From assembly GCA_965649765.1 (NCBI GenBank), contig OZ287751.1:32054001-32118000 (forward strand): DNA of 64,000 bases, given 5' to 3'. The DNA comes from Bispira polyomma. Its lineage: Eukaryota. A model generated the notes under the pieces. It had not been told where the DNA came from and did no database searches. It saw nothing but the letters and a program-made list of their open reading frames with translations. The first letter of the stretch is position 1; each line of letters starts with the position of its first letter. Positions 29,168-42,830 of this stretch are shown here, piece after piece. The translations under genes were made by a program, and so were the position numbers.

Positions 29168-32100
29168 TGCCTAGTGTGAAGTGTACCGGCTGTGGAGGTA
29201 GACATCCGAGACCCGTGGGAAGATGATGCATAGTGTTCAAACGGGCACAAGGCGAGGCCGAGCAGGATGAATGAATTGACGACAATGTGATTATATCCAA
29301 GTTCAGGTAGATCAAAGGCTGCGTGAGCTTGCCTTACTCAATGCCCAGGATCCTTCAGGTAAAAATCAGATCAAATCCCAAAGGGGTGGTTCAGTCGATG
29401 TTTTTGTTAAAAAGCATGTCAAGTGGCCTCACCAGCATGTACTGGGAGGTTCCACAAAAGATAGAATAGCGTACAACCAGCTCACATTTTCTCAACTTGT
29501 ATCGAGTTTCACTCGTAGTATTCAAGAAGAAAGTAATGCTTAAACCAAAGATCAAATGTGATTATTTATGTGATCTGTTAGAAGATGTCCAGGACTTTTC
29601 TTGGCAAGCTGCCAAGAATAGCCATGAAATACTCCTTTGTCAAATGGAGGAAGGAAGATAGAATGGTCTGACACCAACAAGACTGACAGGATACGTAGGG
29701 CACATGCCCAGAGACATGTAGTTGGTAGTAACACAGGTAGTAATTACTCTAAATCACAAACCAAGGATAGGAAAGCAGGCACACCTTGTTTTAGATTTCA
29801 AAAGGGGACATGCAAATTTACCAAGGATCATGAAATGGGGAGCAAAAACTTCATACATGTGTGTGAGTCCTGCTTTGCTGAGGGTAAGTTGTTTAACCAT
29901 CCTGACAAAGAGTGTAGGAACAATAAGTATAATTCAAAAAACGGGAGAGGGCCAGCATCAAATTAGGCGCTGGCAAAAATGGTATGAAATATTGTGATGG
30001 ACAGAAACACAGGTCAGATAGTGTATATAATCATGTAGAAGGTAGTAATACTGAAGTCTAGTATAGATAGTATGGTGATAGAATTGTGTACAGTACAGTT
30101 ATACCCAATGTAAAAGTATTGCATAATAATCAGTTTTTAGGTGATTGGAGAGAAGCATATAGAAACGCAGGTCAAAAGCGCACATATGCACAGGCCCTGA
30201 AACAGGGCACACATGGTAAGGGTGTTGTAGTCAGTCAGCAGCAAGCTGGGTGTGGGCGAAATTCTCCCACTAATAGAACAGCAAATGCCCTCAAAGTTAC
30301 CAACCATAGCATATCTAAATCAGCTGTTTCAAACGGCACTAGCATTGACAACAACAAATGTCCAAAAAGGGGTGATATTAAAAAACCCCAAAGCTCCATG
30401 GCCAACAGTCACAATAAAACCCTCATTAGAGACAAACAGGTCCCACTGGCTAATCGTTTCACTCCCCCAATGTCGACCCTGGAACAAGGCGATGGTCATA
30501 ACAAAGAAAGTGGGGAAAGGGGGGGGATGTGATTTTCTCAAAAGTAGCATAAATGATAACACCTACAGACGGATTGGCAGTGGCATAAATAATCAACCGG
30601 CTTGTGTCACAACTCCATTTGACAACAACAAATGTCCAAAAAGGGGTGATATTAAAAAACCCCAAAGCTCCATGGCCAACAGTCACAATAAAACCCTCAT
30701 TAGAGACAAACAGGTCCCACTGGCTAATCGTTTCACTCCCCCAATGTCGACCCTGGAACAAGGCGATGGTCATAACAAAGAAAGTGGGGAAAGGGGGGGG
30801 ATGTGATTTTCTCAAAAGTAGCATAAATGATAACACCTACAGACGGATTGGCAGTGGCATAAATAATCAACCGGCTTGTGTCACAACTCCATTTTTAGCA
30901 CATAAAAGGCGCAACATGTATGACAATGGGGATAAGGATAAAGGGAAAACCACTTCTATTCAAGGTGTGGAAACACCTCCACAAAGTGACAAAGTTAGCA
31001 AAAGTACGGGTGTTTGTAATAGGGGTAATGGGGAGACTCGTACTCCAGGAAATAAAACCAATATTGTCATAGACAGCATTGCATGGGGTAATAGTACGGT
31101 TGCTTCAAGTGAATATAACAAACAATGTCATAGTAATGGAACCACACAAGACAAGGACCAAAAAGTAGTATGGCAGGGAAAATTAACACCACATGCCCCA
31201 GTATTTATCCCTAGCAAAGTATGTTCCTCGGTTGACTTGCTAAACGTAGATGGCAAATATGAATTGCAATTCTTGAGTAAAACAAACACAAAGGATATTG
31301 CTCAGCTAGTGCAATGTAAAAAATTATACGACACTCGTATTTTTTAAAACCCTCAAGGCTTGGGCTTTGCACCATTGAGTGATTTTGTTAGAACCCAGCA
31401 TCAGGTTAGTGTCCATACTGTCCATACTTACATGAAATGGTTAAGGCAACGGGGAAGTACATTTTTCAGCAGGCACGTTATCCTGTCAAATCCCAACTAA
31501 AGGTTGATAACTGGGAAAGGTACTTACTGGGATTCACAGTTGATTGATTCCATCAAATTTGGATTCCCCTAGGCTTTGATAGGAATGTTGAACTTCAGTG
31601 TGACTTAAACAATCACACATCAGCTACCCAATATCCAGCACCAGTAGATACATATCTAAATGAAGAATGTGGTTTTAATGCAATTATAGGGCCCTTTGCC
31701 ACCAATCCTATAACACAGCTTCACTGCTCACCATTTATAACTCGGGAGAAACCAGGATCAGTAAATCGCAGGGTAATCATAGATCTGAGTTGGCCAGAAG
31801 GTGGTAGTGTAAATGGGGGGGGGGGGGAGACTTCTATATTGTAGCCAGACCTTTCAGAGAATTAGTGATGAAGTAAGGTATATTATGAGTAAAAACAACC
31901 ACAAGATTATCAATTATATTGATGACTTAATAGGCTGTGGTGTACCCAGCAAAGCTAGGGCAGCATATGACTTCCTGTACCAATTACTAGGTAAGTTAGG
32001 TCTTACCATCAGTGCAAAAAAGTTAGTTCCACCAAGTACACAATGCATATGTTTAGGAGTACCAATTGACACTGTACAAGGTACCATTTCTATTCCTGTA

Positions 32101-35200: not shown

Positions 35201-35670
35201 TCTATTTATATATATAGCAATCTAGCAATGAAGTATCAGTAAGCATATTAGGCTTAGCCAAAAATGGGGGCAATTCTGGTCTTTCTAAGTTAGGCTCTAT
35301 CCATATAGTCTATTATCGGCACCAATATCTATTTCCTGTCCCTCATCCCCAGAAATGAATGTGTACTTTTTGTTCTTGGTGTTCATCACTTGATAAATTT
35401 TCATGTTCTGACTCATTAGAATCAGTTTAATCAAGACCATGTTCCCGTCCAAAGCCTTGTCCACAACCCTATCTGCTTTATACTCTTCTCCCTTTTACTC
35501 TCACACCTCCCCCTCTTACTCTCACACCTCCCCTTCTTACCCTTAGTTAAATTCTTTCAACTTGAACTCTCCCTCTAATTCTTGTTATTCTTCTTGTCCT
35601 TAGTATTACTAGTGGTTCAGTTTTAGAAGAACTAAAATCCAAATTACTTTCAAGTCTCAGTAAAATCTGT

Positions 35671-38600
35671 CTCCGTCAGGGGGGGGAAATTGAACCCCCC
35701 TAATTGCCCTGGCCCTCGAGAGAGAACGGCCCCACCACGGCCTGAAGGGGACCGCCGGCGCTGACCCGACACACTCTACCAGATGCCAGGCCGGAACCCC
35801 GGGCTGTGGGCTACCACTGCCCGGCGCGGATCCCCGGGAGGGGCAATTACGGGGGTTCGATTTCCCCCCCTGGACAGAGACAGAGATGGCAGACGGGGTT
35901 GCCAATGAGGATACGGGGTGGTTCTGGAGTTAATCAGGTGATCAAGTCATAATGGATCTGGGCTCTCTTTCATATTGGGAACAAAGGGTTGTGGATGTTT
36001 TTTTTGTGTGGATTGGAATTTAACTATTTTAGCTTAATCAAGGTAGGGTTCATGCTCACTATGTTTTAACAAGTAGTAGCAACATATTTGGTGGGGATGG
36101 GGGGGTGGATGATTTCCATTATATTTAAATATCATTATACCCAATTTTTTACCAAATAGTTACCAAACATGGGGATAAAGTTTGACCTAGATCTTGGGAG
36201 TTGGCTGTATCATCTAGTGATACTTGGAGTATACCTGAATACTTTGGTACCCCATTCCATCTGGTGGGGGTAGGGGTAGGGGTACCTCTTAAGGGTAGGT
36301 GGTCACATGGAGAAGTATCACTATTATTTCACCAACTATCAGCAGTTATAATCACCACTCTGGTTTGGCTACAACAGCAAGGGAATAGGTATATCTAGTT
36401 TCAAGGAGGCAGGTGAGGAGCCGGCCAGATTCTTGGGGGGGACTAGCCGGGTTACCCTGTATTGGTTGGCTGCGATTGTGGTGTGACCAGGACTTCGCCA
36501 CATGGTACAAGGAAGCAAATATGGGAGGACGAATATGATTAAGCACTCCATGTCCAAATTAGGTTGGGAAAGGTTTAAGTTAAATGGTAGGTAGGAGTTA
36601 GTATATGCAATATGGGAGTTATGGGGATTTCTGGAACAGTGGAATTTTTTTTTTTTTTTTTTTTATATATATATTTTTTTTATTGAAATTCTACAAAATA
36701 CATGTACATAATACAAGTTGTAAGGAATATCTATTATATACACTCTATTTGAACATTAAACATTTTCAAACACAGCCAATTTATACATCATGGAATACAG
36801 TATGGTCCTAAATGGAACAGTGGAATTTTTGTTAGAATTTGTATTATAGTATAGAGACATTTAATCAGGCTTAAAATAAAGTAAACTTTATAATTGTAGT
36901 GAGATTTTTGGTAGAACTAGTGTTATAATATAGAGACAATTATTTAGACTTTATTAATTATTTTAGAACTAAACTCAAAATCGTAGTAATTGTAGAAGAA
37001 TAATTCTAGGTTGGAAAGTAATATTTCAAGCAATAATTAATTATAGTGAACTATGACCTTAGTAATACATAAACATTATTGTTTTCCTTGACTTACAAAT
37101 AGTTGTCGATGCAAATGCTTAACATTATTGTTTTCTTTAACTTGCAAATAATTGTCAATGCAAATGCATAATATTATTGTTTTCTTTAACTTACAAATAA
37201 TTGTCGATGCAAACGCATAATATTATTGTTTTCTTAAACTTTACAAAAATTTGTTGCTTAGTAATAAGTATTCTAAGAAAAAAAAAAAAAAAAATAAGTA
37301 TTCTATTTTGCCACTTACTGAGTATATTTACCCCCTTTTGGTTTAAATTATTTGATGTAACAGTATAATACATCACATAATTTACCTTCATTATTAAATT
37401 CTATACTTTTCTACATTATAAATATATCCTAACTTAATTATTATTAATAACATTATGAAATCCCATACTTTACTAAATTATAAATAAATCAAATCCTTAA
37501 TAAATTATCTTGAGTTTAAGTACATTATTAAATCCTATATTTTCCAAATTGTAAATAACATCCTAATTTTGTCATATCCTCAGTAAATGTTCTGTGTTTC
37601 CTTGAGTTAATTTACGTTTGTTGTGTCTATTTCTGTGGGTATTAACTGCCATAATATTTATTCTAATTCTAAAATATAAAATCTAACCTTAAATCTTCTT
37701 ACTCTTAATATTAATTCAGTTAATGATTGGTGTTTGCTATTTTATACATATATATGTGGATTTCCTCTATAATATTGTTACCTACATGTATTCTGTCCAT
37801 TTCAATATTCACATTTGTTATCAATATATATTTCTTTTGAATATCATTTATTGTGTTTCCATTATTGTGTTTTCCACTCTATTAATACAACTTTTCTTGA
37901 CTCCGGACCTGAGTTTGCCAATAGATTTGGAAGGTTAAAAATAGAGGGTGACATTGACCTCGACCTTGAAGGCAAATAACCTTGATCTTGGATTACAAGC
38001 CTGCACCCTTTGAGTTGGTTGGCAGCGTGTCCGTCCGAAAAGCATGCCTTCTCCGAAAACTGTGACTGTACCCCTCCCAAAAATTAGTTGTAAGGTAAAA
38101 TATGTAGGTGTCCTAACAAAAAAATCCTAGAACCAAGGCTGCAATATCTCACTTATTCACAACTCCGACTCTACAGTGTGCTCAGTTTACAATACTAGAT
38201 TGAGAAACCTTAAGGTTGGACTATCCAGTTAGAATATTCCAGTAACAGCTTTTGGTCGGTAGCTGGGTTGGACCAGGGGAAATGGGGCAAGGTGAATTGG
38301 TGGGTCAGTAGTGTTGTCCCAGCTGGTGGGTGGTAGGGGAACCCAGAGTACCAATATGAGTTCTGGTGAGGTGTGATAGTTTTAACTCTTGGGTTATGGT
38401 CTTGTCGACCTAATCGACATGGTGGCAGCAAACGGAAGGTACAAATAACTAGTGACAGTTGGTAATAGGTTAGATCCTATCTAGTTATATAGATAGAAGA
38501 TAGGCAGATACTTGGTGGAATAGAAACCATCGGAAGGGGATACGACAAAGAGGATGATTCTCGGGCAGCAACACCTTTCTGGTTTCTTCCTGGTGAGCGC

Positions 38601-38809
38601 CCCCTCCCAGGGAGCCGTGCAGGGCGGTGGTAACCCACGGCGTGGGGTTCCAGCCTGGCATCCTGTAGAGTGTGTCGGGTCGGCACTGGCGGTCCCCTTT
38701 AGGCCGTTGCGAGGCCGTTCTCCCTCGAGGGTCGGGGCAATTAGGGAGGTTTGATTCCCCCTCTCCCCCGGACAGAGACGGCGGACGAGGTGGCCCCCCA
38801 TCTCGCTAC
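35671..38809. mobile_element. Unclassified 3.1 kb insertion with GC-rich structured terminal repeats
   Basis: 35666-35900 and 38599-38795 are ~80% similar (core inverted); flanked by AAATCTGT direct repeats at 35663-35670 and 38810-38817; no recognisable ORF. Confidence 0.65.
37072..37250. repeat. 49-bp tandem repeat, about 3.6 copies
   Basis: Units start at 37072, 37121, 37170, 37219 (AACATTATTGTTTTC...GATGCAAATGC). Confidence 0.9.
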
Positions 38810-40424
38810 AAATCTGTTTTGTTCAAGAAGTAGTCTAAGAAAGCAGTTTAAAATAAAGAAAAGTGTTTCCATATTAGGGTTACTGTGTCAAATTGCACAA
38901 AAACAACTTGACCTGGCCAAGTTAAGATTTCAAGTGAACAGCTGTGTTAAAATTTGCTTTCCATCAACTTACTTTTACGCAAGAACAATATTTTTTATTT
39001 CATTCTGGCAATGCCATTTGCCATTTTTTAAAAATAATTTCTGGTTTACCATATTGGCCTTTTCTCCAAATTTTTTCCAATAATTTTTGTATAAAAGTAG
39101 TGGTATAGAGTAAGAAAAACGATTTGTTGCAAATGATGCGAATAATCGTCACAAGGAGTGAGACAAATCGTCGCAAACTGTGCGACAAATCGTCGCAAAC
39201 TGTGCGATGATTTGTCGCAAGCAAAACTTCACAAGGGGCATTATATTAAGGAGGCTCTTGTTACTATTTTCTTTGTTCTAATTAATTCATTAGAAACTGT
39301 ATAAATTAACACATATAGTTAATGTTATTAAAAGTAAATGTAATTAAACAGTTTAAAGTAAATCAAGCAAATGAATATTATTAATCATGCAAATGTCATT
39401 TAAAGTTTATAGTTTAAAAGTAAATACCACAGTGTCAAGTAAGTAATTATATTGTCAGTATATAAGTTAAAAGCAACATGTTTAATAATGAATCTTTTGT
39501 AAGTACATGGTATCATCATATTTTTTGACAACTATGTTCAAACATGTAATGTATTTTATCAATGTGTAAGTATGCAGTTTTATACAAGTGTGTGCACTAA
39601 GAAACCCTGTTTCCTGTGCATCATTCCTTAGGAATGTAGTCCAAGGTTCTTCCCATATTTACACCTAGGTTTAGCAAAATATGTAATCATGTGACCCCTT
39701 CAGCTATCAAAAACTATATTACCCACAATCCTATGCAGGTCACATGACACCCCATATAAGGCAATGTTATCTAAATATTATCAGATAACTGGTCACATGA
39801 CCATCAACAATTCTGGCTTCCTAGTCACATGACCATCAATAACTCTTTCTTCCTAGTCAGATGACAAATCACATGACCCTTGCCAATACTATATAAGGCA
39901 ATGGTTTGATCACATGACCAAGCAATGCATCAACATTTACTAAATTACTTATTTTCTCTAACCATGTGACCAGTGTTTCCTGTAGAATTCCCAAAATTGT
40001 TATCTGTGTGACTCATGGCATGCATGCCAATGTTGTGTATATAAGGAGCAGCACATGTGCCAGAAAAAAATATTAGAGATTATAATATTATGGGATGAGA
40101 TGAGATAAGTACAGCATTCTGGGCCTTGTGCCCAGAGTCTATAATAAAGAGCCAGTTATATCAGGCCTCACAGAAAAGTACCATCAAGACTAAATATGAT
40201 ACTACAACTGCTGTTTGTTAAACATTTTAAACTATGTTAAAAGGAGAAATAAAGTATGATGAAAAAGCTTACAAAAAAGACTATTATTAGTTTGGACTTC
40301 AACTGTTGTCAAGTGGTGGAACCCGCCGAAAACAAAACAACTACCGCAGAGCCCAAGTTTACAGAAACATCTGAAAAAAGTCACCCAAAACACCACTTGA
40401 CAATTAACGATTCTTTATTTTGGT

Positions 40425-42422: not shown

Positions 42423-42830
42423 ATGAGGTCCCACATGTGGAGGTGTGGAGATGTGGAGTTACCACATGTGGAGGTGCCGAAGTTCCACATGTGGAGGTAT
42501 GGAGAGGTGAAGGTTCCACATGTGGAGGTGTGGAGATATGAAGGTTCCACATGTGGAGGTGTGGAAATGTGGAAGTTCCACAGGTGGAGGTGTGGAAATG
42601 TGGAAATTCCACATGTGGAAGTGTGGAGATGTGGAGTTACCACATGTAAAGGTGTGGAGGTTCCACATGTGGAGGTGTGGAGGTGTGTAGGTAGCACATG
42701 TGGAGATGTGGAGGTTCCACATGTGGAGGTGTGAAGATGTGGGGCTGTACCACATGTGGATGTGTGTAGGTACCACATGTGGAGATGGAGAGATGTGGAG
42801 GTACCACATGTGGAAGTTTCATATGTGGTG
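42423..42830. repeat. Minisatellite of ~15 CCACATGTGG palindromes inside the Maverick
   Basis: Cores at 42431, 42462, 42485, 42516, 42547, 42578, 42609, 42640, 42663, 42694, 42717, 42750, 42773, 42804, 42819. Confidence 0.95.

Follow-up and report, generated by a model that had tools for sequence, protein, structure and literature searches.

A stem near the priming site of reverse transcription (the U5-IR/U5-PBS stem, formed by the inverted repeat of the unique 5′ region, U5, at the primer-binding site, PBS) is known in retroviruses and in Tf1, and Tf1 self-primes. Extra primer-related structure has been documented in the leaders of Ty1 and Ty3 (PMC4974528), and the leader of HIV-1 carries a highly conserved tRNA-like element (TLE) that mimics an anticodon loop and whose binding to lysyl-tRNA synthetase (LysRS) has been measured (PMC4810235). 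Among retrotransposons with long terminal repeats (LTRs), Helenus/TRIMp3 comprises non-coding elements of 311–1263 bp with a conserved box A and clear similarity to tRNA and to the short interspersed elements (SINEs) of the SINE2 type (PMC10886601, Kojima 2024). Here, we compare with these systems a locus of Bispira polyomma, located in a 64,000-nt stretch of contig OZ287751.1 (assembly GCA_965649765.1, positions 32,054,001 to 32,118,000 of the forward strand; hereafter the window). Its segment at 38599–38765 on the + strand, which the original prediction took for a terminal repeat folding into a structured RNA with tRNA-like D- and T-arms, is, with near certainty, the 3′ end of an LTR of the Ty3/Gypsy type.

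Genomically, the segment is one of many copies. A search of the genome for the repeat (1.0 Gb in 75 contigs) gave 125 candidates, of which all 40 that were scored matched the segment at 82–86% identity; the 30 matches that were fetched all share more than 1 kb of upstream sequence, and in nearly all of them the shared sequence breaks off at one point, ...GCTACA. LTR ends were sought in 21 ten-kb stretches (20 loci and the window), and both ends could be placed in 11 copies, whose LTRs are 2.9–3.7 kb long, start with TG and have TG...CA ends, with a perfect 4-bp target-site duplication (TSD) in 10 of the 11. Directly 3′ of the LTR end, three of 30 further loci carry TTTTC and then an 18-nt PBS, and the PBS adjoins the LTR in loci L095 and L096 too; in reverse complement, the 3′ terminus of a host tRNA-Leu(TAG) gene is identical to the last 15 nt of this PBS, and the first three nt presumably correspond to the CCA tail of the primer tRNA. 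Locus L081 runs from TSD through an LTR remnant, the PBS, 2.9 kb of internal sequence and a polypurine tract (PPT) to an LTR and the second TSD, and another locus has two LTRs enclosing gag (zf-CCHC), reverse transcriptase (RT), RNase H and integrase. The domains of the gag-pol copy examined follow the Gypsy order (zf-CCHC, RVT_1, RT_RNaseH, Integrase_H2C2, rve, Integrase_p58_C) and are broken by stops and a frameshift; the top PDB matches of its RT/RNase H are chain 4ol8 and Ty3 Gag-Pol 7q5b, at E ~1e-46, with the next best at 1e-23.

From the TG...CA ends, the TSDs, the PBS, gag-pol and the PPT, it is therefore close to certain that the segment is the sense-strand 3′ end of a Ty3/Gypsy LTR, ~45–210 nt before the LTR end. 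The element belongs to Ty3/Gypsy on every feature tested, namely direct TG...CA LTRs with a TSD, a tRNA PBS together with a PPT, and an RT-RNase H-integrase order in which the RT is nearest to that of Ty3. The orientation of PBS, gag-pol and PPT also bears out the predicted choice of the + strand as the RNA strand, and the suggested link to priming agrees with a position just upstream of the tRNA-Leu PBS. With described Ty3/Gypsy elements (PDB 4ol8, 7q5b) the family shares TG...CA LTRs, a 4-bp TSD, a PBS for a tRNA 3′ end, a gag zinc knuckle, RT-RNase H-integrase, a PPT and the occurrence of solo LTRs; it differs from them in its very long LTR (2.9–3.7 kb), in a tRNA-Leu rather than an initiator-methionine (iMet) primer, in a GC content of 73–78% over the last 200 nt of the LTR, and in a T-arm-like hairpin at the LTR end. 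Whole elements measure 3–11 kb. What uncertainty is left concerns the role of the T-arm and not the identity of the Gypsy LTR.

Functionally, we posit that the segment is probably a folded leader in the R/U5 part (R, repeat region) of the element's RNA, and that its likeness to a T-arm is incidental. The last ~16 nt of the LTR, within the terminal hairpin and LTR end at 38780–38810 (+, ...CA), are predicted to pair with the PBS in 5′ LTRs, a structure common to related families: set against 68 upstream windows, the duplex ranks first or second at eight of 14 Leu-PBS loci, which differ in sequence, and in locus L106 a variant PBS is accompanied by a matching LTR end. A closing helix of 12–16 bp is predicted as well, between a pyrimidine tract just upstream of 38599 (38583–38593, +, the 5′ strand of the helix in most family copies, weak in the window) and a purine tract after the T-arm-like hairpin, with more than 6 expected long-range pairs in 32 of 41 copies. 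This stem, in acceptor position and abutting the T-arm, was overlooked when the absence of an acceptor end was claimed. Upstream of the GC-rich domain by ~110 nt, a TATA-like TATATAGA at 38486–38493 is a candidate RNA polymerase II (Pol II) promoter, and other copies have an equivalent ~330 nt upstream of the LTR end.

In the genomic RNA, the long helix would close a multi-branched domain whose 3′ side carries the T-arm-like hairpin, and the PBS would be masked by pairing with the final ~16 nt of the LTR. By analogy with retroviral and Ty1/Ty3 biology, the nucleocapsid of Gag may then open the pairing between LTR end and PBS and let tRNA-Leu load, after which reverse transcription would copy the segment first, as minus-strand strong-stop DNA. 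Such an arrangement resembles the U5-IR/U5-PBS stem of retroviruses and Tf1 in its predicted pairing between the 3′ end of the LTR and the sequence that follows it at the site of priming; it differs in that the predicted partner is the PBS itself and that priming is by a tRNA, not self-priming. Pairing with the body of tRNA-Leu of the kind seen in primer activation had no consistent site in eight copies (no control).

Thermodynamically, neither the segment nor its inverted left copy exceeds dinucleotide shuffles in stability: the segment folds with a z-score of −1.30 (21 of 200 shuffles as stable) and the left copy with −1.22 (23 of 200). For the family, 47 distinct copies were extracted and five near-duplicates removed, leaving 42 for folding and motif counts; their mean z is +0.81 on the sense and +0.25 on the other strand, none of the 42 falling below −2 (25 shuffles each), and with the upstream closing helix included it is −0.30, with 4 of 41 below −2 (12 shuffles each). 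Covariation beyond CpG sites, the lack of which the original prediction had named as grounds for refutation, was not found in 40 aligned copies: 6 of 54 pairs carry a double change where shuffles give 4.9, and 176 of 500 shuffles reach the observed 6; the covariation score of 0.084 compares with 0.083 in shuffles; and the pair-keeping double changes are all singletons, half of them of CpG type. RNAalifold, run on the 42 copies and disturbed by homopolymer gaps, gave a covariation term of −0.55 kcal/mol. Variation reaches 11.7% at CpG columns versus 5.7% at others, and the prediction's own caveat, that CpG decay accounts for the apparent compensatory change, holds.

The stems listed in that prediction are all there, including the long hairpin GCCTGGCAT/GTGTCGGGT at 38653–38680 (+) and, on the − strand of the left copy, the perfect D-like arm GGGC-AGTGGTA-GCCC at 35822–35808. 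The three G-U pairs of the long hairpin are unchanged in 37–38 of 40 copies, which, as far as these alignments go, is inheritance and no evidence of selection, so that the pairs lose the value for RNA polarity once placed on them. As for the D-like arm, the hairpin in the segment itself (38622–38636, +) has a D-loop-like GGTGGTA tip and a decayed arm (GGGC-GGTGGTA-ACCC), and many copies have lost part or all of its 3′ arm, 17 of 40 being gapped at two of its four pairs. Its loop occurs in the context GGCGGTGGTA (GGTGGTA) in 28 of the 42 copies and as GGCAGTGGTA (AGTGGTA) in only three; the perfect AGTGGTA loop is likely a variant left by CpG decay.

Evolutionarily, the T-arm likeness is confined to this family. 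The GGTTCRA motif of the T-arm occurs in none of 29 other gag loci of this genome (1.5 kb upstream), which take in sister families at 49–66% identity and ten of which show a Leu-type PBS upstream. Of 11 other Leu-PBS loci, 10 have LTR ends that do not align significantly with the segment, and the eleventh equals the shuffle maximum. In metagenomes, a full 5-bp T stem was present in none of 26 loci chosen for GTTCRA 50–80 nt upstream of the same PBS 18-mer, some of which are not LTR elements, and one locus has four of the five pairs. Within the genome, exact matches to the T-arm (30 of 30 for the commoner 16-mer, 26 placed by motif test and four partial copies by eye; 5 of 5 for the 17-mer of the other variant) all lie inside this LTR. 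Every copy examined is embedded at an LTR end, with no independent SINE-like dispersal among them, and an incomplete set of 57 host tRNA sequences under 14 labels shows no similarity beyond the shuffled range and includes no donor. At L176–L189, the host genome also has tRNA genes and decayed tRNA copies arranged in tandem (Ala; Ser/Leu/Ile clusters).

Farther afield, a pattern scan of viral contigs for relatives was empty and gag alignment confirmed none of 141 metagenome pattern matches; five close gag relatives are present in ENA. A conserved tRNA-like structure was not found among the sister gag and metagenome loci, a comparison low in power that did not include close relatives from other species. 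A literature search returned no report of a coding Gypsy element with a tRNA-like structure in its U5; it covered few subscription papers, with Repbase outside its scope, and the Gypsy family may therefore already be catalogued. Because covariation is absent and the T-arm hairpin is missing from sister families, the segment probably represents a folded leader of the ordinary kind and not a new RNA, and the T-arm likeness, judged on the copies compared, is family-specific and carries no sign of selection on tRNA shape.

Several observations nonetheless weigh against so plain a leader. The T-arm in its strict form (5 bp, TTCRANY loop) is present in 20 of the 42 copies, in none of their 42 reverse complements and in 11 of 21,000 shuffles; at its default score and with introns allowed, ARAGORN calls a tRNA in four of the 42 copies, all on the sense strand, versus 1 of 1,050 shuffles; and the T-arm-like hairpin adjoins the closing stem in the manner of T-arm and acceptor stem in a tRNA. 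The last base of the T-loop is only C or T, in two sub-lineages, and shared non-CpG variants are scarcest in the bin at 100–200 nt from the LTR end (9 versus 10–59 in 11 other bins, 45 copies). On the side of the leader itself, the duplex between LTR end and PBS is weak in 6 of the 14 Leu-PBS loci and partly forced by a short terminal inverted repeat, the start site and the R/U5 borders are presumed only, and the covariation test is low in power because the copies are young and mostly decaying.

These counts have to be read with care. Because the copies share one ancestor and the motif was picked after the fact, the 20 T-arms amount to one post-hoc observation, not 20, and because ARAGORN makes many spurious tRNA calls across loci when relaxed, its result at score 90 (34 of 42 copies) was used only against shuffles (83 of 1,050). 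The predicted T-arm thus survives as a genuine, if functionally unproven, feature of the family, above chance at that level; the arm actually quoted was that of the left copy, and neither window copy passes the strict test, the one in the segment (38745–38761, +, also a B-box-like motif) having decayed to GGAGG-TTTGATT-CCCCC. The proposed check against Rfam gave no match at gathering score in the window, nor did ARAGORN at default settings, and an intact copy had no tRNA family match at E ≤ 10 with RF00005-type scoring. Five copies (L055, L078, L220, L239 and L252) have lost the T-arm, the D-like arm or the entire domain through internal deletions and keep the terminal hairpin.

Leucyl-tRNA synthetases largely ignore the anticodon, a property that matters to the first alternative, in which the T-arm, the closing stem and a GG-bearing loop would together mimic the elbow and acceptor of a tRNA, bind leucyl-tRNA synthetase (LeuRS) or another tRNA-binding factor and help to hand tRNA-Leu to the PBS ~60 nt downstream. 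The missing anticodon arm is hence not fatal to such a mimic, and a T-arm far above the shuffle rate on the sense strand only, directly beside a 12–16 bp stem and just upstream of a tRNA-Leu PBS, is what it would look like. HIV-1 supplies the precedent, with a conserved stem-loop upstream of the PBS that binds LysRS (PMC4810235). The likeness to that element is one of position only, both being tRNA-resembling hairpins of the sense-strand leader, a short way upstream of the PBS; whereas the TLE copies an anticodon loop, the segment recalls a T-arm, in one family only. Moreover, the pairs do not covary, the commonest D-loop begins with G and not A, the D-arm-like stem is partly deleted in the 17 gapped copies, the T-arm in tRNA register has a pairing probability near 0 in most copies displayed, where a shifted hairpin is preferred, and sister families with the same primer have no T-arm. 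We therefore consider the mimic unlikely, and its fullest version, an autonomous-type animal Gypsy element whose LTR end would carry an elbow/acceptor mimic (a T-arm on a long stem, a separate GG loop, no anticodon) that recruits LeuRS for primer delivery, is a little harder still to credit on this analogy.

Improbable, too, is a decayed tRNA- or SINE-derived insertion whose A and B boxes would act, as proposed for Helenus, as an RNA polymerase III (Pol III) promoter or TFIIIC site, with the run of four T between LTR and PBS ending an RNA of ~200 nt. The Pol III boxes raised by the original prediction are present in part: the B box GTTCRANNC occurs in 28 of 41 copies and GGTTC in 29 of 41, but a canonical A box at tRNA spacing in none of the 41. 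An A box one base short (TRGCY-NN-YGG) occurs in 15 of 41, and in the 12 copies having both it lies 111–117 nt upstream of GGTTC, a spacing larger than that of an intronless tRNA gene. TTTT does follow the 5′ LTR directly, but T runs before the PBS are also found in families lacking the T-arm motif; and the failure of 10 of 11 other Leu-PBS LTR ends to align with the segment would suit an insertion, but none of the 35 exact T-arm matches described above lies in a tRNA gene or SINE, and similarity to the 57 host tRNA sequences of the incomplete set is at shuffle level.

As a precedent for such boxes, Helenus/TRIMp3 (PMC10886601) and Cassandra (PMC7215508) share with this family a tRNA-box-like motif within the LTR, a GGTTC box B and the lack of an encoded functional tRNA, and animal Helenus shares the 4-bp TSD and the dependence on Gypsy (PMC10886601). 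The family departs from Helenus in having a gag-pol form, 3-kb LTRs, no full box A, 111–117 nt between A and B and no donor found. Helenus is small and non-coding, whereas the LTR alone measures 2.9–3.7 kb here, a gag-pol form exists, and an element of 3–11 kb is not a terminal-repeat retrotransposon in miniature (TRIM).

A self-cleaving ribozyme, offered in the original prediction, or an RNase P/Z processing signal that sets an RNA end is very unlikely. A T-arm with a stem has the shape of a minimal RNase P substrate, five of six intact LTRs have no A(A/T)TAAA in their last 870 nt, and a loose hepatitis delta virus (HDV) descriptor matched 3 of 41 copies (no shuffle control). However, the other 38 copies fail that descriptor, the hammerhead core occurs in none of the 41, neither the window nor an intact copy matches an Rfam ribozyme, and cleavage in the 5′ LTR would presumably remove sequence needed for first-strand transfer. 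Finally, reading 35666–38778 as a 3.1-kb element with terminal inverted repeats (TIRs) or parvovirus-like hairpin ends has a negligible chance of being right, for its 178-nt inverted arms, 2.76 kb apart, and the stable DNA fold-back at its left end (z −6.55) belong to a form seen at the window locus only among 45 genome matches to the segment, 11 other copies with both ends placed have a plain TG start, and copies with an internal region carry this sequence as direct repeats on either side of gag-pol, which refutes the reading. The TG...CA ends, TSDs, PBS and gag-pol rule out a parvovirus-like or TIR element, a Helitron end and a Penelope-type inversion alike.

In the window, AATC stands on both sides of 35668–38810 (+), the left TSD at 35664–35667 being identical to the right one at 38811–38814, and the whole is therefore one solo LTR of this Ty3/Gypsy family (TG...CA, ~3.2 kb, sense on the + strand). 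Its first ~230 nt are replaced by rearranged pieces of its own 3′ end, an inverted copy at 35668–35843 (−), which is the left copy of the original prediction, and a direct piece at 35841–35903 (+) that comprises the T-arm-like hairpin and tail and forms a 44-nt fold-back arm with 35666–35709; after it, ordinary LTR sequence resumes (35902–38582, +), mostly AT-rich with short tandem repeats and presumably U3/R. What had been called a terminal repeat is actually one LTR end plus a fold-back specific to this locus, the two copies of the segment (38601–38778, +, and 35666–35843, −) being 81–82% alike over ~178 nt. At the flank junction of the inverted copy, a contig in each of three sequencing runs (from one study, at most two samples, possibly the source sample) spans 35450–35751 without difference. 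Because these contigs agree and the arms of the fold-back are only 89% complementary, an assembly artefact is unlikely, and a template switch at the GCCCC/GGGGC arms of the domain is the likely origin of the fold-back. Elsewhere in the window lie a minisatellite at 42431–42823, with units of 8, 23 and 31 nt based on the palindrome CCACATGTGG, and an exact tandem duplication of 274 nt at 30345–30892.

Structurally, other copies of the family vary as well. Loci L094–L096, L243 and L081 appear to represent a non-autonomous derivative with a 2.9-kb internal region from PBS to PPT; in L081 (G000:C5:28966000-28975999, − strand) a CAAG target duplication flanks the unit even though its 5′ LTR is only ~37 nt long, and in L095/L096 two PBS-bearing LTRs stand 6.1 kb apart. 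At L071/L087 (G000:C9:2412000-2421999) the final ~390 nt of the LTR appear again behind the LTR end and PBS, an arrangement that looks like an aberrant strand-transfer product. Locus L043 (3036–9147) holds a head-to-tail tandem duplication of ~3.06 kb of LTR at 98.6% identity, and a full-length Gypsy copy is apparently inserted in another RT-like reading frame (L089 9626–9958 and L088 1500–1755; DIRS-like by eye).

For the family, the result is one of annotation, a long-LTR Gypsy family with a T-arm-like motif in its leader, and it illustrates that a fold-back in one solo LTR can mimic terminal inverted repeats and that CpG decay can mimic both a D-loop and covariation. If the boxes did serve Pol III, Helenus-like boxes would be present in a coding element with long LTRs, a kind expected to use Pol II (PMC10886601). 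If the tRNA mimic were true, a retrotransposon would have its own equivalent of the HIV-1 TLE, built on another part of the tRNA, and primer delivery by synthetase decoy would extend from HIV-1 to Gypsy elements.

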